Made by a program: the position numbers and the translations under genes
IMG/VR virus record: IMGVR_UViG_3300044655_002046
From: a virus
Length of the DNA: 64,000 nt
Direction: 5' to 3' (one strand)
Part shown: positions 1 through 19,245 of the stretch, piece after piece
Layout: each line of letters opens with the position of its first letter
Position numbering within the stretch: the stretch's first letter is position 1
Notes under the pieces: model-generated
Databases searched by the model: none
What the model saw: only the letters and a program-made list of their open reading frames with translations
What the model was told of the DNA's origin: nothing

Positions 1-7
1 ATACTCA

Positions 8-37
8 GGAGGGCCCACTCCCCTTTTCTTTCTAGTG
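8..37 (+). terminator. GC hairpin + T-tract followed by CTAGTG (copy 1 of repeated terminator/CTTTAGTG motif)
   Basis: GGAGGGCCCACTCC CCTTTTCTTTCTAGTG; related motifs at 219, 1279, 2064 and 7277. Confidence 0.55.
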
Positions 38-218: not shown

Positions 219-252
219 GGGGAGCTATATGCTTCCCTTTTTCCTTCTGGTG
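219..252 (+). terminator. Intrinsic terminator-like hairpin with CTTCTGGTG tail
   Basis: GGGGAGCTATATGCTTCCC followed by TTTTT. Confidence 0.6.
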
Positions 253-1154: not shown

Positions 1155-1321
1155 TGCTATGGGCCCGTCTCTACTTCTTATTCAAGATAGAGGCGGGCCC
1201 CTCGTCTCTAAATGATAGCGCCTTAAAAAGAAGAGGAATGAAGTTCAGCACCTGAGTTCGTTAAGTACGCCAGCAATTGGCCCCTTTTCTTTTAGTAGTC
1301 CTATACACCCAAGTATACACA

Positions 1322-2062
1322 ATGAGAAACAACAACAACAACGACAACCAAGTCTCTAATCAAGCCTCTAACCAACCCACCAACTCCAAAAACTACGTAT
1401 TTACCCTTAACGTAAGTCGCTCTGCCAGCACTAAGCCTGGCGTTCTTGCTTACGTGCACAATGGCGCTATCAAGCGCCGCCTGGATGGGTCTAGCTACTG
1501 GCTGGAGTTCCGGCTGATATCCAGTAAAAACGGAGAGGTACCTCTCACTACCTCCGATGGCCGTAGCTTATCTACAGCCGAGTTTGTAAAGCTTCTCTCC
1601 GGAGACGCTAGCGATGACGTGATAATGTCTGTAGAGTTATCTACAGATTTCGAAGACGAGTGGGACACGTCATGGGGGAGTGTAAAAGTTAGCTTCAACG
1701 CGGAAGATATCTGCGTTGGGCGCGAAACGGAATACAAGGGCGCAATAACCCAGTACTTTCACCTTGAAGGTGCGGAAATCCAACTTCATCGGGAAGTCGT
1801 ACGTCCCAAAATAGACCCGTCTATACTGGACGGGTTTGAGGGAACGGCAAAATCTAACGTGGTAACTGTGGAACAATTACATAGTAAAGCGGCCGCCCGC
1901 AAACGCAAACGGGAGGCTGCTAAGGCTGCACGAGATGCTGCAGCAATAGTATCTAAGCCAGGTATTGTTGCTGAGTCAGTAGTATCATCAGATGCTACTA
2001 CTGATTGGGAAGTGCCGGCTGACCTATCAGTCGACATCAACATCAACGATCTACTTGACTAA
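1322..2062 (+). CDS. Hypothetical protein (Asn-rich N-terminus, beta-rich core, basic helix, acidic tail)
   Basis: Track ORF 1277..2062; ATG at 1322 is the more likely start; no family motif recognised. Confidence 0.7.
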   Translation: MRNNNNNDNQVSNQASNQPTNSKNYVFTLNVSRSASTKPGVLAYVHNGAIKRRLDGSSYWLEFRLISSKNGEVPLTTSDGRSLSTAEFVKLLSGDASDDVIMSVELSTDFEDEWDTSWGSVKVSFNAEDICVGRETEYKGAITQYFHLEGAEIQLHREVVRPKIDPSILDGFEGTAKSNVVTVEQLHSKAAARKRKREAAKAARDAAAIVSKPGIVAESVVSSDATTDWEVPADLSVDININDLLD

Positions 2063-2063
2063 T

Positions 2064-2102
2064 AAAAAGGGGCCCTGCTTGGGCCCCTTTTTCCTTTAGT
2101 GG
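2064..2102 (+). terminator. Intrinsic terminator followed by CTTTAGTG
   Basis: AAAAGGGGCCC TGCTT GGGCCCCTTTTT CCTTTAGTG, just upstream of the RNAP gene. Confidence 0.75.
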
Positions 2103-2121
2103 CTATATATTACCACTAACC

Positions 2122-5100
2122 ATGAATACCATCAACTCTATCGTCTTCCAATCTAATGTTCTCGTAGCCTCTATCAGCGCCGCTATCATCGCAGGTGCTC
2201 GTACTGCTGCACGACGTATAGGTCCTGGTCGCCGTGCTCAGCAGATAGCGAGCCGTCGCGCTAATCGCGTAGTACGTCGCCGCTCTCGTCGTATTGTATC
2301 AGCCGGCCGTCCTATCCGTTCTCTACCTCAGCAGCAACGCCCCTGCGTTGTAAAATCAGCACGCCGTAGCGCACGGCGTGCCGCAGCTGCCGCAGCCTCA
2401 GCCGCCCGCAAACCCGTATTACGTAGCCGTAACGTCGTAGACAAACTTGTCTTACGACAACGTAAAGCCAAACCTATACTGCGCGCTGTCAGCGCAGTAT
2501 TTGCGCGTCCCTCGCGTTCTATTAGCACCGGCGCTAAAGCCGTTGCTACCGTAAATAATGCTGCTGGTAGTATTATCGCTGCCCTCGACCAAGGGCGCCT
2601 AAACTATCGCGGCAAGGGCCGTACATGTGTAGGTAAGAAGTACCGCACCAAAAACTCTAAAGTAGCTGTACCTACTAAGAAGGCGGCCGCTAAGGCAGCA
2701 CGCACCAAGCGCTGTATCTCTGCACATGTGAATCTTAACTTAAGTATACATGCTAGTCGACTTATAGACGCTGGCCGATTGTGTGGGGTTACCTTTGTGA
2801 AGGGTGCCCTAGCTTCTTACTGCGATAGCATTATTACCTTACCTGATTTCGAAGATGTGCACGTAGTAGCGCACGAGCTAGTCCACCACTGTCAGGCCCT
2901 AGGTCTTACCAAAGATCTAGATGTCTATACAAATACCTCTGATGCTGCCATTGACGCAGGCTTAATTCAATGGGAAGCCACTAAAGCTCATTATGAAGGT
3001 ACCGAGCACGGGAATGATGAGTATGAAGCCGCCTTTCTAATGTATGATCCAGAGCTAGTAATCCGCCTGCTCTGTACTCATTACTTAATGAGTAAGTTCG
3101 TAAAAAGCGGTAAGCCCAGCGTCGACTACGTGTGGATAGACGTAGTAGATGCCATGAATCCCCTCATCTGCCGTGAAGTCCTGGGTATAGATGACTCCCG
3201 CGTAATTTGGCACAGTACCTACGGGGAGTATTCTGAAGCTGTTGGGCACGACAGCACCGACACACTACTAGACTGGGAATATGTCTATAACAATAGCGTC
3301 AATAATAGTGATCCTATCGCGCTTACTATTCAGGCTGTTAATAACCTGATAGGTAAAGCCCCCGCGGTAGTGAGTACTCCCTCTGTAGTAACTCCGCCTT
3401 GCCCGGCTCCTACTACTCTCAGCAGCATGATGGACCGTCCGCTCTCTAACACAGGAGCCCCTACTAAGGGGTTAGAGAGTGATAGCTCCTATACCAATAC
3501 CACCAACACTAGCACTACCATGAAGAGCATTATCGAGATGTTAATTCCTGACCCTAGTACTCTCGGTGGAGTCGTGTCTCCTAAGCAGGAGGCGCGCATC
3601 ACAGCAGCTCGTAAAGAGTTAACCCGCTTGTTTGGGGCTAATAACTTCGACCTTCTGCCTGAAGGTCCGATTCTCTATGTCGTATCTGGTTACAACCGTA
3701 TGTGTAAGAAGTTCCTTGCGCTTCTAGACCATCGGGTTGTTTACACCACGGATTCTAAAATGAATCCTAAGGTCATTAACTTAGGTGTAACTAAGTCTAT
3801 TCCCTATGAAGACGACAAGCATACCTATACCACTAAGACCGAATGTTTAGTTAGCATGTATAGTGAGCACTTCCTCACTAACTTAGCTACGTGGTCTGGT
3901 GATGACCTGGCCGCTCTCGTAGGCTGTCTGTGTATTAAACAACACCGTATTGTTAGTGTTGAGGGCCCCTGTGTTGTCATCAAGGGTAATAACCGTAACA
4001 CTACTTTCAACTTTAATAGCAGTACCGTCAATGATGGTCGTCAGAGTCGCATCGCTAATGAACTCGTTAAAGTAGGGGGCAAAGATTACAGTGGTCGCGT
4101 AGCCCTTGTAGCACTCTGTATGAAGGTAGTGCATAACGCCACTGGTGCGCGTGCTATCCTCAATGAGGTAACTAACCTGTGGCGCGAGGACATCAACTAT
4201 GGCGCTCAGCCTAAAGAAGGTCAGTCTCTGTTTGAGATTAATCGCGGTACGACTCGTCCTATCGTGTTCAAGCCTTGGGATAAGGCCTTCCCCTTCCTGC
4301 AAGTAGAAAACACTAATCTTGCTCCCAGCGATCTTGAATTGTCGCTCAAGGACGGTGTTATAGCAGCACCTGATAAGTACAATTCAAAATGGATCGCTGT
4401 AGGGACGGCCGCCAAGGCCATGTTCCTCGGACTTAAGGATGGTAAGATATACTCCATCCATGACTTCAGCAAGCCCACTAAGGTATACAACCGTCCACCT
4501 AGCTCGGGTAAATACACCCGTGCTGAGGTGGTAGGTCGTCGTGATAGCCTACTTCGCGTTGATTTAGGTGATGGTAGCTATAGTTGTGGTGGTGGCCTCT
4601 ATCTACGCACCGCATTCACCAATAGCCGCTTTGGCTTTGGCAGTGGTGTTGCTGCTATACGTCGCGACCTTGAGTTCGAATATACTGTACCGAAGACCAT
4701 TACTAAGGAGTTTCACGTACTCCGTATTCCTAGCTCAGTTCGCGCTCTTATGGCTGCTGATCTAGATGACCCCACGAGTAAACTCATGGAAGTCATCGAA
4801 GGCAAGATAGAGAAAGCGAAGGGTCAGGTCTATGCTCCTGGTAACCCTATCATTAGCATTATGCAGGGCAAGTACTGCATAGTGAAGAACGAGACATTCG
4901 CGCAGGACATCCGCGTAATAGGCGGGACTGTCACGCGTAATGGCGTCGAGGGCCGCGCTGATAGCGTCACTATTCGACTTGAGACTGAGATGGTAGGGCG
5001 TGACCAGGCCCTCAAACTCCGCGGTCTAGGTAAGAAGCTTACTACTCTTCCCTATGACGTTGAGGGACTATCTCAACCCTGGGATATCATCCTAAATAAC

Positions 5101-7269
5101 GAAACCACCAAGGGGTGGCCCGCGCTCATAGAGATGTTCGCCATTGAGAAGGGCGGCTGCACTTATACTCCCGAAGGTGCGCTTCTCACTATCGATGCCA
5201 CTGGTGAAGTCATTGATCTCATGGCTAAGACTAATACCTTTACTGAGTGGGCTCGAGCCAAACTAGCTACTGATGATACTGGGGCCAGTGTTAAAGAGGT
5301 CATCTCCTTTGATATGGCTCGTGATCTGTGGGATTCCATCTCCTCCGTAGTAGCTAATGATGACATCAATGTAATCGATATCAACGATACCACTGTCCGT
5401 ATCGAAGAGACCGTCGAAGTTATATACGGTTATCTGCCGTATGATATCGAGATAGCCACTCCTCGTGAGTCCGTAGCATTCTCCAAGATGACTATGGAGC
5501 AAATAGGTATTGTGGCTCTACAGAACCGCGCTTGGAGCGAAGCGCTCATGGAGGAGGTTAAGTACGATAACGTTATGTCCATAGTTAGCATGATCACATC
5601 TAAAGAATGTGCTGATTACATTAACATCAGCACTACAGAGGGGCGTGACCATCTACGGGACATTATCGGTGTAGTTAACAACTACGTTTCTGATAGCGCC
5701 CCTGGCAGTGACCGCAAACTGCTAGACCGTTTTGCCACCGTCTACCCCAATGGAGTGGATATCGTTGCTCAGAATAACGGTAATGAAGTCTCTCTTCATA
5801 TCAATGGTAAGGCCCTAAGCGCGTTCGGTACCTTCTCTGGCGCCTCCGCTACTGGTATTATGCTAGACCTTCTGACACTGTTGGCCTACGTTACTGATGT
5901 AGGGATTGAAGACCAGAGCGGTTTGGATAGTAAAATCTACTCCATGACCGCTAAGGTCAGCCGCGGTTTACGCACATGGTGTAACACCATGGTTAAATCC
6001 AAGAGCATTCTGAAAAGTATGGCCCGCGCCGGCGATGTGGTCGTTGGTAAGGTCAAGACCAGTTATAGCCCGCTGCTCCATAGCGCTGATGGCGTGCCTG
6101 TAATTCTCATGCACCCCGATTGCCCTATGGTGCGTATGCTTGGCATCAAAGAAGGCCAGGTTATTGGGGTACAACGTACTCCTATGGGTTTCATCCTATG
6201 CGGCCGCGTCAAGTTCTCTACTACTGATGCCTTCGTCGCACACTATACGGTCAACCCTCTCCTATGGCACGCCGTTAACGAAGGTGATGCTGATGGTGAT
6301 CAGTGCGGCGGCATTAATGCTCACAAATACGGTATCGACGCTGAGAGTGCCCTCACTATCAATGCTAGTCTCATGGGCATGGGCGGCTACTTCTACTGCT
6401 ACGAAGCAGATGACCTGCCGTTCTTCGCCTTCATGAGCTATGAAGATAAGATGGGCAAGAAATCCCTTACTAAGTGGGATAAGGCTGTAGCCACTGCTAT
6501 CGCTGTCGATAAGTACGTCAGCGACGCTGCTGAGGTGCATATGCACTACAAAGTAGCCGTAGGTGTTGGTTATGGTATCTGTTCTGCACTTGCCTTTCAG
6601 ACATGGGATAGTATGTACCGCGCTAGCGGCGTCGATACCGACGCACTTAAAGCGTGTGTTATCGCTTGGCGTTTCGTCTATGAAAGCATGGGTCTCGGGG
6701 GCTATACCCCTGAGGCTAAGATCTTTATGGCGACCTTAGTACAAGCAGCCCGCGCCTGGGCTGCTGGCGTGCCTATGTATAAGTCAGCACAAGACGGGTT
6801 ATACTACTCTGCTAACTCTACTAAGCTTGCGGATACGGATCGCCAAGGAGGTGGTGTACCTCCTGCTCGGGTTATGGCTGACCTTATGCCCGCTAAGCTG
6901 GCTAAGGAGCCCGCCGTAATCTACCAGCTTATAAAGGCTCGTGCTCGTACTCTCACATACGGCGCTCTCGAACGGGGCAACTTTGCTCGCGAGAGCCTTA
7001 TCATGTCATCTGCTATCTACGGAGCCTTCCGTCGTACTGGCCAGGGTCATGATCCTGTGGTTCCTATGACTCAGGATGACGCGGCCAGTTATGGCGCTGA
7101 TGATATCGTCCCCGTTAGTGTGTTCGACATGGTAAGTGAGTTCCAACTCTCTAACTATGTCAAGAACCCTCAACTCAAGCAGCTGTTGGAAATCGCAACT
7201 GCTGTACATCTCGATCTCGGTGACTACAAACTAGAACTCGCTGAAGCTGAAGATCATCCTGATTTCTAA
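2122..7269 (+). CDS. Single-polypeptide two-barrel (double-psi beta-barrel) DNA-dependent RNA polymerase with Arg/Lys/Ala-rich N-terminus and zincin-like HExxH motif
   Basis: Beta-prime-like VQRTPM...NPLLWHAVNEGDADGDQ (DxDGD at 6286-6300; compare LNRAP...HPLVCAAYNADFDGDQ). Beta-like KLRGLGKKLTTLPYDVEGLSQPWDIILN at about 5014-5097 (compare KMAGRHGNKG...MPYDENGTPVDIVLN). HELVH at 2872-2886 with downstream EYEA. Confidence 0.85.
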   Translation: MNTINSIVFQSNVLVASISAAIIAGARTAARRIGPGRRAQQIASRRANRVVRRRSRRIVSAGRPIRSLPQQQRPCVVKSARRSARRAAAAAASAARKPVLRSRNVVDKLVLRQRKAKPILRAVSAVFARPSRSISTGAKAVATVNNAAGSIIAALDQGRLNYRGKGRTCVGKKYRTKNSKVAVPTKKAAAKAARTKRCISAHVNLNLSIHASRLIDAGRLCGVTFVKGALASYCDSIITLPDFEDVHVVAHELVHHCQALGLTKDLDVYTNTSDAAIDAGLIQWEATKAHYEGTEHGNDEYEAAFLMYDPELVIRLLCTHYLMSKFVKSGKPSVDYVWIDVVDAMNPLICREVLGIDDSRVIWHSTYGEYSEAVGHDSTDTLLDWEYVYNNSVNNSDPIALTIQAVNNLIGKAPAVVSTPSVVTPPCPAPTTLSSMMDRPLSNTGAPTKGLESDSSYTNTTNTSTTMKSIIEMLIPDPSTLGGVVSPKQEARITAARKELTRLFGANNFDLLPEGPILYVVSGYNRMCKKFLALLDHRVVYTTDSKMNPKVINLGVTKSIPYEDDKHTYTTKTECLVSMYSEHFLTNLATWSGDDLAALVGCLCIKQHRIVSVEGPCVVIKGNNRNTTFNFNSSTVNDGRQSRIANELVKVGGKDYSGRVALVALCMKVVHNATGARAILNEVTNLWREDINYGAQPKEGQSLFEINRGTTRPIVFKPWDKAFPFLQVENTNLAPSDLELSLKDGVIAAPDKYNSKWIAVGTAAKAMFLGLKDGKIYSIHDFSKPTKVYNRPPSSGKYTRAEVVGRRDSLLRVDLGDGSYSCGGGLYLRTAFTNSRFGFGSGVAAIRRDLEFEYTVPKTITKEFHVLRIPSSVRALMAADLDDPTSKLMEVIEGKIEKAKGQVYAPGNPIISIMQGKYCIVKNETFAQDIRVIGGTVTRNGVEGRADSVTIRLETEMVGRDQALKLRGLGKKLTTLPYDVEGLSQPWDIILNNETTKGWPALIEMFAIEKGGCTYTPEGALLTIDATGEVIDLMAKTNTFTEWARAKLATDDTGASVKEVISFDMARDLWDSISSVVANDDINVIDINDTTVRIEETVEVIYGYLPYDIEIATPRESVAFSKMTMEQIGIVALQNRAWSEALMEEVKYDNVMSIVSMITSKECADYINISTTEGRDHLRDIIGVVNNYVSDSAPGSDRKLLDRFATVYPNGVDIVAQNNGNEVSLHINGKALSAFGTFSGASATGIMLDLLTLLAYVTDVGIEDQSGLDSKIYSMTAKVSRGLRTWCNTMVKSKSILKSMARAGDVVVGKVKTSYSPLLHSADGVPVILMHPDCPMVRMLGIKEGQVIGVQRTPMGFILCGRVKFSTTDAFVAHYTVNPLLWHAVNEGDADGDQCGGINAHKYGIDAESALTINASLMGMGGYFYCYEADDLPFFAFMSYEDKMGKKSLTKWDKAVATAIAVDKYVSDAAEVHMHYKVAVGVGYGICSALAFQTWDSMYRASGVDTDALKACVIAWRFVYESMGLGGYTPEAKIFMATLVQAARAWAAGVPMYKSAQDGLYYSANSTKLADTDRQGGGVPPARVMADLMPAKLAKEPAVIYQLIKARARTLTYGALERGNFARESLIMSSAIYGAFRRTGQGHDPVVPMTQDDAASYGADDIVPVSVFDMVSEFQLSNYVKNPQLKQLLEIATAVHLDLGDYKLELAEAEDHPDF

Positions 7270-7276
7270 TTACAAT

Positions 7277-7323
7277 GGGGTCATATGACCCCTGGGGCCA
7301 CCTGGCCCCTTTTTCTTTTAGTG
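7277..7323 (+). terminator. Tandem hairpins + T-tract + CTTTTAGTG after the RNAP gene
   Basis: GGGGTCATATGACCCC then GGGGCCACCTGGCCCC TTTTTCTTTTAGTG. Confidence 0.75.
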
Positions 7324-7479
7324 GAGCTCTTTACTCCATATGATAGGTAGTATCTGGTATTGCCCATGACAGCGAATGTTACTAGCGGCGGCTTATGCTC
7401 GTGACGGCGAATTCTATTAGCGGTGGCAATAAACTATCTGTTGGGTACTCCCTAAGCACCCAGCAAGAGCTGCGTTAGT

Positions 7480-7765
7480 TTCATTAGCCACTCCCTTTCA
7501 GAAGAGCTATTGTCGCGATAGCTACCATAGCTATACTAGCCACTCCCCAACGGAGGAGCTTATGGTACTCGAGCTGTTCCCCAGCGGAGAGCCTACAGGG
7601 CTCGAGCTGCGAAAGTAGCCAGTGCCACTCCCTAACAGAGGGGCTTGTGTCGCACTAGTTGTGATAACTACTATAGCTGCACTAGCTGCTCTAGCCACTC
7701 CGTTGGGGAGGGCTTATGGTACTCGAGCTGCGAAAGTAGCCGATACCACTCCCCAACGGAGTGAT
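7480..7765 (+). repeat. Array of five degenerate bulged hairpins (GCCACTCC-loop-GGAG-GCT) with repeated GGTACTCGAGCTG(CGAAAGTAGCC); candidate ncRNA
   Basis: CCACTCC units near 7488, 7540, 7625, 7694 and 7746; GCTGC-GAAA-GTAGC hairpin occurs twice; no convincing ORF. Confidence 0.65.
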
Positions 7766-7803
7766 ATAACCTCTAATTACTCATTATTACCTATTAGCTA
7801 GCC

Positions 7804-8490
7804 ATGAGAACACAACGCACCGCCAAAACCACCGCAGGAACCACCGCCAAAACCACTACTACTCTATCCCCTATAGAAGCATTCAAAGCAGCGGTAGCAG
7901 AACCTAAACCACAGGAATCCAAAGCGCAACTGCTTTTCTCAATAGCGTTTACAACTAAGTTCCTTCCAGAACGCTTTTGGAACAAACCATGCTCCGATGG
8001 GAGCGTACGGTTAGTAGGCACAGTCGCGCGGACTAACAATATTACCCGCCAGGGTTTCCCAATTGCTAACGACCAGCTTGTTGATATGACAGTTGAAGTC
8101 CGGGTAACACCGGACCAATTTGAGATTATCTCTGATGGCGCTGAAGGCATGGTAGGAGCGGGCTTATCCGTTCTCTTCGAGGTCGGGGAGCCCATCTTAT
8201 CCGAACTCACCGTAAACGGTGAGGAAGTCAATAGCATTGTCTTTTACGCTATGGCCTTGGTAGGCATGGAGGTCAATCATACTTCCATTAGCGGTCGAGG
8301 CTTTGATTCAAAGAATGAGATGGATAACTGGTTCTCAAAGGCGCGGTCTCAGAATAATGATCGGCAGAAGCGCCGGCAAGTAGAGCGCACTGCTCAGCTA
8401 CAAGCTGCACAAGCTGCTGCCGCTGCTGCAAATAACGATGCAGAGTGGGCGGCGACGACCCCTGCCGCAAGCACCAATCCTATGGAATAA
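7804..8490 (+). CDS. Hypothetical protein (Thr-rich N-terminus, beta-rich core, basic/Ala helix)
   Basis: 228-aa ORF; architecture similar to 1322..2062. Confidence 0.75.
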   Translation: MRTQRTAKTTAGTTAKTTTTLSPIEAFKAAVAEPKPQESKAQLLFSIAFTTKFLPERFWNKPCSDGSVRLVGTVARTNNITRQGFPIANDQLVDMTVEVRVTPDQFEIISDGAEGMVGAGLSVLFEVGEPILSELTVNGEEVNSIVFYAMALVGMEVNHTSISGRGFDSKNEMDNWFSKARSQNNDRQKRRQVERTAQLQAAQAAAAAANNDAEWAATTPAASTNPME

Positions 8491-8579
8491 GAATTAGCTG
8501 ACCTTATCGGAGGTCGGCTGATATACGCCTCTCTACTGGTAGAGAGGCGTATAAACCGTTCTACTACAGAGAGAAGGAA

Positions 8580-9476
8580 ATGAACGCTACACCACACACA
8601 ATAATATCTAGACAGGGCGTCGAACAGAATAGAAGACAGTTTAAAGAACAACCCTTCGGGGAAGATTTGGGCAACGACATAACCTTAGAAATGGTTGCTA
8701 TCCCAGGGGGAACTTTCCTGATGGGTTCACCGCCAAATGAGAAATATAGTTTTGATGATGAACACCCTCAACATCAAGTAAGTGTCCCACCCTTTTTCAT
8801 GGGTAAATACCCCATCACTCAGGCTCAGTGGAAAGAGGTTGCCTCTCGCACAGATTTAAAAGTTGAAAGAGACCTTGATCTCAACCCAGCCTATTTTAAA
8901 GACCGTCCCGATAGTGATCGCCGCCCCGTAGAACAAGTCAACTGGTACGATGCCGTTGAATTTTGTGCGAGATTATCGATACTGACGGGAAGGGAATACC
9001 GACTACCGAGTGAAGCGGAATGGGAATACGCTTGTCGTGCTGGAACTACTACCCCATTCTACTTTGGGGAAACCATTACGGGGGAATTGGCTAACTATGA
9101 CGCCAGCGAAACAACTCCCGTGGGACAATTTCCCCCCAATGCCTTCGGACTGTACGATATGCACGGCAATGTCTGGGAATGGTGCGCTGATACTTGGCAT
9201 GATAACTATGACGGTGCGCCTAGTGACGGTAGCGTTTGGCTTGATAATAATCAAGAGGAAAATATTGATGCTGAAAATAGTCTAGAATCTACTGAAAAAG
9301 CAGATTCGGCAGACTCACTGCAAGACGAGAATAATCTATATTCTGTCATGCGGGGCGGTTCCTGGGGCAACAATCTTAATCTCTGCCGTTCCGCGATTCG
9401 CTACGACACCTACCGCCGCGTCAACCGCTACTTCCTTAACGGTTTTCGAGTAGTCTGCGACGGAAGAACTCTCTAA
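8580..9476 (+). CDS. FGE-sulfatase (C-type lectin fold) protein, DGR-target-like #1
   Basis: [51 protein letters not shown]...CRSA.R...GFRVV; VR-like segment 9351-9459. Confidence 0.92.
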   Translation: MNATPHTIISRQGVEQNRRQFKEQPFGEDLGNDITLEMVAIPGGTFLMGSPPNEKYSFDDEHPQHQVSVPPFFMGKYPITQAQWKEVASRTDLKVERDLDLNPAYFKDRPDSDRRPVEQVNWYDAVEFCARLSILTGREYRLPSEAEWEYACRAGTTTPFYFGETITGELANYDASETTPVGQFPPNAFGLYDMHGNVWEWCADTWHDNYDGAPSDGSVWLDNNQEENIDAENSLESTEKADSADSLQDENNLYSVMRGGSWGNNLNLCRSAIRYDTYRRVNRYFLNGFRVVCDGRTL

Positions 9477-9575
9477 CCCTTTTTCTTGATGGAATAATAA
9501 TCAGCCGACCTTATCAGAGGTCGGCTGAGCCCTCTACTAGTAGAAGACGTATATACCGTACTACAGAGATTAAAA

Positions 9576-9938
9576 ATGATCGTTAACGCCACGCCTGATG
9601 TAATCACTCTCGTCTCTAGACAGGGGATCGAGCAAGACTCCAAGAACCAGTTTCTCGCTGAAACTGTTGAAATTCTCGAAGAGATCCCTCCGTCGGGGAT
9701 TCTCCCACGAGTTTCAATAGTCACGGGGGAAATCGATGGTATTGCCATCGAGTCCATTGTTTACGGGGAGATCGAGAAATTACCTAAATATCAAGAAGGA
9801 ATTTATTACATCGTGTTAGAGTTGGTGGCCGCGGCGGCCACTAAGATAGGTCGCACGGACTGCCTTGCCCCTGGAGGGTTAGTACGAGATAAATCTACTG
9901 GGACTGTTTTAGGGTGCCTGTTTTTACAAAAGCTCTAG
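9576..9938 (+). CDS. Conserved viral hypothetical protein (NxTP...PSG..RV...LP...IV...R.D..P..VR...G..GC type)
   Basis: 120-aa ORF; leader and N-terminus are paralogous to those of 8580..9476. Confidence 0.7.
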   Translation: MIVNATPDVITLVSRQGIEQDSKNQFLAETVEILEEIPPSGILPRVSIVTGEIDGIAIESIVYGEIEKLPKYQEGIYYIVLELVAAAATKIGRTDCLAPGGLVRDKSTGTVLGCLFLQKL

Positions 9939-9984
9939 ATTAGTTATCAGTTACCAGACAAATTACTTATCTAGGAGCAAAAAA

Positions 9985-10185
9985 ATGTCGTATCAAGATG
10001 AATTAATGAAAGATTGGGACATTGAAAGACAAGTACAAGCCTTAGAGGTAGTAGCTTGTGAGTATCCTCTTATTGCTGGATATAACCAAGAAGAGTTATT
10101 GCAGTTTGCAAAAACCGACAAAGATGCTTTTGACCTTTTTGCGGCGATAAAAATGGACACAGCAATTAAAAAATATGAAATGTAA
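9985..10185 (+). CDS. Hypothetical protein
   Basis: 66-aa ORF with AGGAG RBS. Confidence 0.6.
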   Translation: MSYQDELMKDWDIERQVQALEVVACEYPLIAGYNQEELLQFAKTDKDAFDLFAAIKMDTAIKKYEM

Positions 10186-10243
10186 TTAGCTGTCAGTTAT
10201 CGGTTATCGGTTATCAGTAAGCAAAACTATTAGGAGTAAGGCA

Positions 10244-10801
10244 ATGATTGAGATTGAAATGGTAGAGATTCCTGATGCAAGTTTTGCAATTGGGAAATAC
10301 CCAATAACTCAAGCGCAGTATGAAGCGGTAATGGAAACTAATCCATCTTGGTTTAAAAACAATCCCCAAAATCCTGTAGAAAATCTTTGTTGGTACGACG
10401 CTCGATCTTTTTGTCAGAAATTAAGTCAAATAACGGGCAACCTCTATCGCCTACCTTCTAATACAGAATGGGAATACGCGTGCCGTGCTGGTACTAACAC
10501 TCGCTTTTATTTCGGTGATGATGCTAATCAGTTAGGAGATTACGCTTGGTATTACGACAATTCTCAGAAGACAACTCATCCTGTTGGATTAAAAGTTCCC
10601 AATGCTTGGGGACTTTATGATATGCACGGCAATGTCTGGGAAATGACTCAAGAAGCCAAATTGCGGGGCGGTTCTTGGTACAGCGATCCGGATTACTGCT
10701 ATTCCGCTTATTATATCGTCCTCGCACGATTAGCAGAAAGCATAGGTTTTCGAATAGTTCGCGATTATAACAACTTGGGTGGATATAGGACAATTCTCTA
10801 A
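10244..10801 (+). CDS. Minimal FGE-sulfatase protein, DGR-target-like #2 (most diverged)
   Basis: [44 protein letters not shown]...GFRIV. Confidence 0.9.
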   Translation: MIEIEMVEIPDASFAIGKYPITQAQYEAVMETNPSWFKNNPQNPVENLCWYDARSFCQKLSQITGNLYRLPSNTEWEYACRAGTNTRFYFGDDANQLGDYAWYYDNSQKTTHPVGLKVPNAWGLYDMHGNVWEMTQEAKLRGGSWYSDPDYCYSAYYIVLARLAESIGFRIVRDYNNLGGYRTIL

Positions 10802-11000
10802 AACTGACAGAACCGCAAGAATTAGACTGGTACGAAACAATTTATCCGTTTCGATATTCAGGGGGCATCCATTATTTTATTCAAAAGAATCAAGGATGGA
10901 TAATAGATGAAATTGCTGTTTTTAAACACGTAGAAAAGTAATTGGTTATCAGTTATCAGTTATCAGTAATCAATATTTAATCGTATCAACAGAAGATATT

Positions 11001-11366
11001 ATGATGTCATTTGAAGAGCTTCAGAGTGTTGTATCAGCAGAAAAACAACTGCTATCATTTGAAGAGTTTCAGAACCAGGTCTTAGAGGCATTTAAATGCA
11101 CCAAAGAAGAGTGTGAGTTTTGGGATTCTTCTTATTATTTCTCGGCATTAATTAATTACACTAATGGCCATTATTTATTCTTTAGAGTCAGATATGTAAC
11201 AAACCCTGAAAACTATAATTATGGTCGTTGGATCGTTATAAAAGAATACGACAAAGCTTGTAGAGACATTTCAGATTCTTTGATGCAAGCAATAAAAGTT
11301 GTTGCACAAAAAACAAAAGAAAGCATCAAGGAAGAAAATGCTATCTTTGAAAAAATAGAAAAGTAA
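11001..11366 (+). CDS. Hypothetical protein, paralog of 11419..11784
   Basis: MxSFEELQ..VSAEKQLLSF.EFQ N-terminus shared with neighbour; near-identical leaders. Confidence 0.75.
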   Translation: MMSFEELQSVVSAEKQLLSFEEFQNQVLEAFKCTKEECEFWDSSYYFSALINYTNGHYLFFRVRYVTNPENYNYGRWIVIKEYDKACRDISDSLMQAIKVVAQKTKESIKEENAIFEKIEK

Positions 11367-11418
11367 TTAGTTATCAGTTATCAGTAATCAGGATTTAATC
11401 GTATCAACAGGAGATATT

Positions 11419-11784
11419 ATGCTGTCATTTGAGGAGCTTCAGAATAGCGTATCAGCAGAGAAACAACTGCTGTCATTTAAAGAATTTCAGAGTCAGGTCT
11501 TAGGGACATTTAATACCTCTAAAGAAGAATGTGATTTCTCTCCTTTATCATATGCCTTCTTAGCAGAAGTCAGCTACCATAAATACCAATGGTTACAATT
11601 TGAGGTTAGATACATAACAGACCCTGAAAACTGTTACTATGGCCAATGGATTTGTGTTAAAAGGTACAATAAGGCCTGTAAGACTATTTCGGATTCCTTA
11701 AATCAAGGAATAAAGGCCCTTGAGCGGCAGACAGAGGAGAGCATCAAGGAAGAAATCGGTGCTTTTAAACGCTTAGAGAATTAA
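11419..11784 (+). CDS. Hypothetical protein, tandem paralog of 11001..11366
   Basis: Same length (121 aa) and clearly alignable. Confidence 0.75.
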   Translation: MLSFEELQNSVSAEKQLLSFKEFQSQVLGTFNTSKEECDFSPLSYAFLAEVSYHKYQWLQFEVRYITDPENCYYGQWICVKRYNKACKTISDSLNQGIKALERQTEESIKEEIGAFKRLEN

Positions 11785-11914
11785 TCGGTTAGTAAAACTT
11801 ATTAGGAGTAAAACAATGAGCTAAAGATCAGGATCCATGTATGGGTCAACTCAGTGATGGGCACTACTACTGGGGAACCCCAGTAGTCCAATCCGAGTTG
11901 AAGAAAGTACCGTC

Positions 11915-14684: not shown

Positions 14685-15227
14685 ATGAAACTAAGAATCA
14701 AATTAACCCGTTCGAATGCAACCAAACAAGTTACATTTACGACTAGCCGCAACGGCAACGCCGTGTTAACTGGAACTTGCGTTGGAGCGCAAGACTATCA
14801 GTTGAAGCTATCAAACGGCGGTTATGTCGACGCCAGTGAGCTAGCTGTCGATCTAACTGTCAATCTAGTAATCAGTCACAATAGCGCTAAAGATGCCGCC
14901 GAGGATGTAGCCAGGGCCTATAGTAAGTATGGAAATGGAAGTCCATTCATTGTAATGGTGGTTGAGAGTCTAACCAAAAAGCCCACGGCTGAGGGCAATA
15001 TTATAATCATGGAGAATGATGTAATCTCAATTGAATATGAGAGCTACGAGAGTGATACTACCATCACGAGCGAGGATGAGTTGAAAGCCCTCTTCAAGAA
15101 GGGGGTAGGAGCATCCTCAGTAGGGGCCCCAGTAACGGGAGGTAATCGAGCAGCGTGTGAAGCAAGCACTCCTGAGGTAAGAGTCCCCAGCTATTTCAAC
15201 CGTAAGGTAACTCTCCAGGAGAGATAA
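14685..15227 (+). CDS. Hypothetical protein
   Basis: 180-aa ORF with AGGA RBS; beta-rich N-terminal part. Confidence 0.7.
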   Translation: MKLRIKLTRSNATKQVTFTTSRNGNAVLTGTCVGAQDYQLKLSNGGYVDASELAVDLTVNLVISHNSAKDAAEDVARAYSKYGNGSPFIVMVVESLTKKPTAEGNIIIMENDVISIEYESYESDTTITSEDELKALFKKGVGASSVGAPVTGGNRAACEASTPEVRVPSYFNRKVTLQER

Positions 15228-19172: not shown

Positions 19173-19245
19173 GCAGAATTGGCCGATTGGTATAGGCACC
19201 GTCCTCATAAGACGGCTTAAAGTGGTTCGATTCCGCTATTCTGCA
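19173..19245 (+). tRNA. tRNA with CAT anticodon (elongator Met or Ile2)
   Basis: Acceptor GCAGAAT/ATTCTGC, anticodon arm CCGTC-CTCATAA-GACGG, T arm AGTGG-TTCGATT-CCGCT; no initiator hallmarks; CCA not encoded. Confidence 0.92.

Follow-up and report, generated by a model that had tools for sequence, protein, structure and literature searches.

In a 64,000-nt stretch of viral DNA (IMG/VR record IMGVR_UViG_3300044655_002046; hereafter, the window), we found that the gene orthologous to gp064 of Ma-LMM01 almost certainly specifies a single-chain RNA polymerase (RNAP) built like the catalytic core of cellular RNAPs. Judged from its predicted fold, this 1715-aa protein is a two-barrel polymerase with near certainty, and its predicted activity as a DNA-dependent RNAP is very probable. 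Phage RNAPs with two barrels in a single chain are already known; by sequence comparison, gp064 represents a new family of this kind that has no name and shows no sequence relationship to YonO or to the RNAPs of crAss-like phages and P23-45.

The ORF consists of 1715 uninterrupted codons (Table 1). A first-pass annotation made from the letters alone had read both barrels from short motifs, and all of these were located in the ORF where it had placed them. It had also pointed to the hypothetical proteins of Ma-LMM01 as a source of homologs; gp064 of this phage proved to be the ortholog (88% identity), and proteins with 87–88% identity occurred in nine of nine Fukuivirus records, throughout which gp064 is annotated as "hypothetical." In Microcoleus phage My-WqHQDG, a distantly related hypothetical protein of 3410 aa likewise carries a basic N-terminus, HELxH, the KLRGLG motif, and GDTDGD. 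A search of 1.8 billion representatives returned 146 clusters at 50% identity, indicating by sequence a large, unnamed family, and most homologs were compact cores of 1250–1450 aa. The 1715-aa protein had no Pfam match at E ≤ 1 and no sequence match in crAss phages among 50,697 records, the gp064 family profile matched no PDB sequence, and the PHROG assignment was PHROG 30979 (function unknown). Among the relatives, a 156-kb phage (L023) carries a tandem duplication of the gp065 and core-RNAP pair (2518–11717) with diverged copies, the second RNAP copy showing 82% identity to the C-terminal region of the window protein. A complete, GC-rich 169-kb phage (L037/G006) carries a gp064 family member and its own variant of the hairpin element described below.

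Table 1. Features of the RNAP gene and its surroundings in the window (nucleotide positions, except for motif starts, which are residue numbers).
Feature	Position	Strand	Remarks
Hairpin element at window start	7..37	+	
Hairpin element before ORF 276-1022	219..250	+	
Hairpin element before gp065 ortholog	1269..1297	+	Shorter stem
gp065 ortholog	1322..2062	+	246 aa from ATG, beta-rich, acidic tail; candidate cofactor
Hairpin + T-tract + AG element, ~20 nt before RNAP ATG	2069..2101	+	Candidate phage-RNAP promoter and/or terminator
Whole RNAP gene, Ma-LMM01 gp064 ortholog (YP_851078)	2122..7269	+	Predicted two-barrel RNA polymerase in one chain; N-terminal modules optional
Basic Arg/Lys/Ala-rich arm (residues 26-198), optional	2197..2715	+	From composition and selection
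Zincin-like metallopeptidase cassette (residues ~199-410)	2716..3351	+	HELVH at nt 2872-2886; IrrE/ImmA (Peptidase_M78)-like
Candidate third zinc ligand, E300	3019..3021	+	Conserved downstream Glu
Ser/Thr/Pro/Asn-rich linker	3352..3525	+	End matches N-terminal leader of L023 core-only copies
Beta/Rpb2-like half (residues ~584-1120)	3871..5481	+	K965, K972 (KLRGLGKK from nt 5014), DIILN, K997, E1110
Beta'/Rpb1-like half (residues ~1235-1691)	5824..7194	+	From fold alignment and conserved residues
Double-psi barrel (residues ~1300-1400)	6019..6321	+	R1352-x-P1354; D1389-x-D1391-G-D1393 (nt 6286-6300)
N-terminal motif starts (residue no.)	HELVH 251, EYEA 300		
Core motif starts (residue no.)	KLRGLGKK 965, LPYD 976, DIILN 988, QRTP 1351, NPL 1378, GDADGDQ 1388		
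Hairpin element directly after RNAP stop codon	7292..7323	+	

The catalytic assignment rests on conserved residues and on the predicted fold. K965, K972, K997, E1110, R1352, P1354, D1389, D1391, G1392, and D1393 were invariant in all 67 aligned members, and since this alignment takes in homologs at only about 20–35% identity, the core motifs are not chance resemblances. Based on spacing and position, K965/K972 would correspond to Rpb2 K979/K987, R1352/P1354 to Rpb1 R446/P448, and the Asp triad to that of Rpb1, all of which are named catalytic reference residues (PMC2919709). At the position of the second-metal carboxylate (Rpb2 D837; "ED" in beta subunits and "DG" in RdRPs), gp064 reads GSG by eye (residues ~840–842), with G842 invariant, and the invariant E1110 or another acid could replace this carboxylate. 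Purifying selection was strong (dN/dS 0.11–0.13), which argues against a dead enzyme.

Structural prediction of residues 521–1715 with 58 sequences gave a pLDDT of 90.3 and a pTM of 0.88. The top Foldseek matches in the PDB were almost all RNAP beta/Rpb2 chains (best E 9e-4). In VIA-align, model positions 64–600 were aligned with Rpb2/beta over ~400 residues (Z 10–12, rmsd about 5; for Rpb2, Z 11.8, rmsd 5.0, 409 aligned) and positions 715–1171 with Rpc1 (Z 10.1), in agreement with the order of a beta-like followed by a beta-prime-like barrel that the first-pass annotation had proposed for the single chain. Model positions 780–880 (residues 1300–1400) fitted designed and natural double-psi barrels with an rmsd of 1.9–2.1 Å over 85–90 residues (Z 9–10; 2.1 Å over 90 residues for a designed barrel). 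By the same method, the whole chain superposed on QDE-1 (Z 12.2, rmsd 6.3, 501 aligned, spanning both halves), RDR2 (Z 12.0, rmsd 4.7, 422 aligned), P74 gp62 (Z 11.8, rmsd 4.8, 394 aligned), and P23-45 gp64 (Z 10.9, rmsd 5.2, 397 aligned). RDR2, QDE-1, gp62, and gp96 were among the top five in a search independent of Foldseek, and single rigid superpositions on each of these chains covered both halves of the model. The ESM Atlas neighbors of homolog P0016 included a viral RdRP cluster (PF05183, 73% of members; 0.91), which we regard as a lead only.

In the model, the beta'-type barrel was shown computationally to bear the Asp triad and R1352, and the beta-type barrel K965 and K972; the single superpositions together with the pTM of 0.88 indicate that the two barrels are juxtaposed as one active site. 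The absence of double-psi barrels from a predicted structure, or an Asp triad placed elsewhere than between two barrels, had been named as an outcome that would speak against the polymerase; both barrels were found and one superposition spans them, so neither objection was borne out. The core of the earlier call, a very divergent phage RNAP, holds.

Comparison with known enzymes placed gp064 between several groups. The N-terminal half resembles Rpb2/beta over ~400 residues and the C-terminal half Rpb1/beta' of cellular RNAPs, with corresponding Lys pair, R-x-P, and Asp triad; however, gp064 is fused and minimal, with no alpha, omega, or sigma, reads NEGDxDGD where cellular enzymes have NADFDGD, and has apparently had its ED motif replaced. 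The best whole-chain fold matches were the eukaryotic RNAi polymerases QDE-1 and RDR2 (PF05183; Z 11–12, 420–530 aligned), although identity to these was 9–12% and gp064 is phage-encoded and lacks a Pfam RdRP match. Thermus phage P23-45 gp64 and P74-26 gp62 (PDB 8f72, 8f5m) are single chains with both barrels and DxDxD, as is gp064, and matched both of its halves (Z 10.9–11.8 over ~395 residues), whereas identity was about 10% and their core spans ~600 aa rather than the ~1250 aa of gp064 with its beta-like N-terminal half. SPbeta YonO is likewise a single-chain two-barrel phage DNA-dependent RNAP, as predicted for gp064, with a possible late-gene role in common; yet no sequence match to YonO appeared in Pfam, PHROGs, or the phage collection and no YonO chain was among the fold results. 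The virion RNAP gp66 of crAss-like phage phi14:2 (PDB 6vr4) shares the single-chain two-barrel build and an associated zincin, but it matched weakly in Foldseek (E 3e-3, probability 0.63, TM 0.12), is packaged in the virion, and has its zincin in the neighboring gp65, whereas the zincin of gp064 lies in the same chain. With its beta-like half and RdRP-like whole, the modeled gp064 lineage is structurally intermediate.

Next, we focused on the N-terminal modules. The arm (residues 26–198) contains 19.7% Arg, 8.7% Lys, 19.7% Ala, and 18% V/I/L, with many V/I/L/S residues, and the net charge of the first 200 residues is about +47; its dN/dS of 0.31 indicated purifying selection. Protamine-like proteins have very high Arg, about half or more, and little else. 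The first-pass description of the arm as basic and Arg/Lys/Ala-rich was therefore right, whereas the term "protamine-like" was rejected given 19.7% Arg, only 28% Arg and Lys together, and a mixed composition. The zincin-like motif proposed for the following segment held up, in that H251, E252, H255, and E300 (HExxH plus a downstream Glu) were invariant in seven of seven divergent zincin segments and intact in 11 close alleles. Five of the seven segments weakly matched PF06114 (Peptidase_M78; best 1.3e-5), the window's own segment had no Pfam match, and full-length zincin-bearing proteins fell below the PF06114 cut-off. Atlas neighbors of the zincin (0.87–0.90) included M76, SprT, and M78 clusters, and a search for stand-alone zincin homologs found none, which is weak evidence of absence. 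HExxH with a downstream Glu is common to this zincin, IrrE/ImmA (Peptidase_M78), and the MPTase domains of polyvalent proteins (N4 virion RNAP), although in gp064 it forms an optional cassette.

Near-full-length homologs comprised 59 core-only proteins (a few of these gene calls may miss an upstream start), eight with a basic extension but no zincin, and 14 with arm and zincin, and the zincin forms occurred in three separate places in the family tree. In the sister phage L023, the gp065–RNAP pair occurs twice in tandem, without arm or zincin in either copy, and both RNAP copies open with a Thr/Asn leader matching the end of the window protein's linker. Among close relatives, the zincin was the least conserved part of the protein (62–76% identity vs. 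92–94% for the core), with a dS of 0.60 against 0.21 in the flanks and a dN/dS of 0.25, and in a contig from an RNA library, nt 2662–3439 were replaced by 728 different letters. These sequences show the pattern of an exchanged, maintained cassette, apparently allele-swapped among close relatives, and for this reason an accessory role as effector or regulator suits the zincin better than that of an activator on which the enzyme depends. A zincin required for activation was rejected, given its absence from the nearest relative, L023. The earlier proposals that the protease processes or activates the enzyme and that the arm serves in packaging or ejection are both weakened by the 59 core-only homologs, the two L023 copies without either module, and the exchanged zincin (dS 0.60 vs. 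0.21). In RNAP forms of ~3200–3400 aa (L002:7183–17415; P0107), a NADAR domain follows the catalytic barrel in the C-terminal part.

The RNAP gene closes a co-oriented block in which nearly every gene is preceded, 20–50 nt before its ATG, by an element combining a GC-rich hairpin with a T-rich tract and, frequently, another hairpin. In many relatives, the element marks this block alone. The stems vary while pairing is preserved, and the tail is invariant in each phage; Microcoleus-type phages have the tail ATTATTGT, which makes a poor U-tract. Ma-LMM01 had five scored copies in 162 kb, all within 43.8–50.9 kb, compared with 0–1 in shuffles. Three further phage records, one of them a complete 252-kb genome, had copies limited to about 7 kb at the RNAP gene, with one looser match far from the block in the complete genome. 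The element also scores as an intrinsic terminator and contains G.T wobble pairs; Rfam contains no family for it. No sigma70 site was found before ORF 1322 or ORF 2122 in the window, and none was called for gp064/065 in Ma-LMM01, where no shared late-promoter motif was seen upstream of gp081–gp119. Apart from 42-bp repeats, a search for motifs shared by early or late promoters found none. The element may act as a phage-RNAP promoter with N4-like geometry, as a terminator, or as both. Its confinement to the RNAP block and the lack of a sigma70 site there count in favor of the cascade proposed below.

Several further features of this region were observed. In a 254-kb jumbo phage (L022), intergenic elements before RNAP-block genes (4753–6990, 7790–7830, 9972) resemble H-type pseudoknots, in which a stem is joined to an 8-nt loop complementary to the 8 nt after a conserved TAAATAAGT; each copy differs in sequence, and none matched Rfam. 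The gp065 product is a candidate cofactor because its gene is duplicated together with that of the RNAP in L023. A 117-nt direct repeat (83%; 105–221 and 1047–1163) surrounds ORF 276–1022, which had no PHROG match and may be an inserted cassette. Downstream of the RNAP gene, degenerate repeats at 7460–7765 (GCCACTCCC...GGAG hairpins) precede the gp063 ortholog as a candidate promoter or origin; they are the 42-bp repeats that head the early block in Ma-LMM01. In distant relatives, too, orthologs of gp063 (7804–8490 in the window; also L022 and L033) and gp054 (14685–15227; also L022) follow the RNAP gene, and their products, beta-rich with basic helices, are possible cofactors or ssDNA-binding proteins. 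Two early-block genes (8580–9476 and 10244–10801) are, as judged from sequence, FGE-sulfatase-like (SUMF1-type) and resemble Microcystis host paralogs. The window also contains tandemly duplicated 121-aa ORFs with TTATCAG repeats upstream (10882–11790) and a tRNA gene (19173–19245; Rfam RF00005).

A second polymerase candidate lies outside the window. Ma-LMM01 gp080 (YP_851094; L038:701–11389, minus strand; 3562 aa) adjoins head genes and contains R2477 and NLGDFDGD at 2537, and its N-terminal region is labeled PLD in UniProt. The gp064 model weakly matched parts of A0A7J4 in BFVD (E 9e-3 and 4e-2), an entry taken as gp080 by its length. Each of the five genomes fetched through the gp064 family encoded a gp080-like ORF of 3.5–4.7 kaa that retains the Arg, DxDGD, and two Lys, and a search starting from gp080 led to a complete genome that carries a gp064 homolog. 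The co-occurrence is not universal, because the complete GC-rich genome G006 had no gp080-like match and G008 (96% complete) had no gp064-like match. Fold prediction of gp080 gave a pLDDT of 48, and hhalign related it to the gp064 family over only 39 columns around DxDGD (probability 11%). Overall, we consider gp080 a probable virion RNAP and a better candidate for that role than gp064.

Published Ma-LMM01 RNA-seq, with its coarse time sampling, gave log2 FPKM values for gp064 of 0, 1.6, 7.5, and 8.05 at 0, 1, 3, and 6 h. At 1 h, gp064–067 stood at 1.6–2.8, and gp054–063 had already reached 5.4–7.9; the head genes gp085–087 climbed by about 6 log2 units from 3 to 6 h. The small rise of gp064 mRNA over that interval (7.5 to 8.05) argues against a structural component made late. 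gp064 is encoded away from the structural module, and its timing, without late kinetics, fits a non-virion enzyme. The pre-early burst predicted by a cascade model was not seen.

To predict the role of gp064, we weighed these data against P23-45, which provides a two-RNAP precedent with gp64 as the non-virion and gp96 as the virion enzyme. It probably shares with gp064 the pairing with a giant second enzyme and with a motif-marked gene block, although its motif is AT-rich whereas the phages carrying gp064 have a hairpin element and a cyanobacterial host. The most likely reading, to which we give even odds as a whole, is that gp064 is the non-virion RNAP of such a two-enzyme cascade. There, gp080, encoded beside head genes, would be the packaged enzyme and would read the hairpin and T-tract elements before each gene of the small block ending in gp064; newly made gp064, possibly with gp065, would transcribe the later genes of the phage without relying on host sigma factors. 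The arm would be an optional non-specific DNA tether, and the zincin an optional, exchangeable IrrE/ImmA-like protease with a host or phage regulator as a likelier target than core activation. The prevalence of compact cores among homologs and the absence of a late jump in gp064 mRNA support the non-virion role. In a version along the lines of the first-pass annotation, gp064 would itself be packaged in the virion, with the arm binding DNA for packaging or ejection and the zincin acting in self-processing, and would transcribe the early block gp063–gp054 immediately upon injection. N4 virion RNAP has its MPTase within the region needed for encapsidation, the crAss gp65 zincin adjoins the virion RNAP gene, the early block, beginning immediately downstream of gp064, is expressed before gp064 mRNA appears, and the 2900–3400-aa forms, which combine arm, zincin, and NADAR, look like injected polyvalent proteins. 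We nevertheless consider a packaged gp064 quite unlikely, as most homologs and both L023 copies lack arm and zincin, the zincin is the least conserved segment (62–76% vs. 92–94% for the core), and the gene shows neither a place in the structural module nor late kinetics.

The elements bear on a scheme modeled on YonO, in which gp064 would be a non-virion RNAP for the late head and tail burst, its gene being expressed through host read-through or self-amplification and the hairpins serving as terminators or RNA-processing sites. YonO itself is a precedent, the phage has no sigma factor, gp064 mRNA is present at 3 h, ahead of the ~6 log2 jump of structural genes at 6 h, and the elements, with their G.T wobble pairs and one copy after the stop codon, resemble Rho-independent terminators. 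On the other side, almost all ATGs of the block have an element only 20–50 nt upstream, its tail is constant and particular to each phage, the Microcoleus-type tail ATTATTGT is a poor U-tract, and gp081–gp119 share no upstream late-promoter motif; we regard this scheme as unlikely. A function apart from mRNA synthesis (as a primase-like or RNA-dependent two-barrel polymerase, or as a decoy) would accord with the RdRPs QDE-1 and RDR2 as best whole-chain fold matches and with the apparently missing second-metal carboxylate, and the phage has its own putative primase, which would make priming redundant yet possible. Such a role is very improbable: the characterized phage enzymes of the same architecture (YonO, P23-45 gp64/gp96, and phi14:2 gp66) are DNA-dependent RNAPs, the beta-like N-terminal half is kept over about 400 aligned residues, and a dN/dS of 0.11–0.13 speaks against a dead enzyme. 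The cascade, the YonO-like scheme, and a packaged gp064 all share the highly probable core claim of a DNA-dependent RNAP.

For the toxic bloom-former Microcystis, Ma-LMM01 serves as the model phage. Such myophages have been described as relying on host RNAP, as the first-pass annotation stated: the Ma-LMM01 transcriptome study assigned all phases to host SigA and left open how three temporal classes arise without a change in host transcription (PMC5780444), and the MaMV-DH01 genome was reported to lack an RNA polymerase (PMC9927357). The RNAP surveys that we examined (including PMC2919709) do not name the protein, although an earlier bioinformatic mention is possible. The gp064 family is a new lineage (146 clusters, no Pfam match, PHROG "unknown") with a candidate structured promoter. 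Tentatively, and with more doubt than confidence, we envisage that Ma-LMM01-type freshwater cyanomyoviruses run a host-independent cascade with two unrelated single-chain two-barrel RNAPs, gp080 packaged and gp064 acting after entry, in which gp080 would read hairpin promoters, pseudoknot-shaped in one jumbo relative, while gp064 would found a large, unnamed family that has collected zincin and NADAR domains as swappable effector modules. A phage-encoded RNAP makes the question of the three classes directly testable in a cultured system. If true, a two-RNAP cascade would overturn the published model of host sigma70 only and would explain three expression classes without disturbed host transcription.
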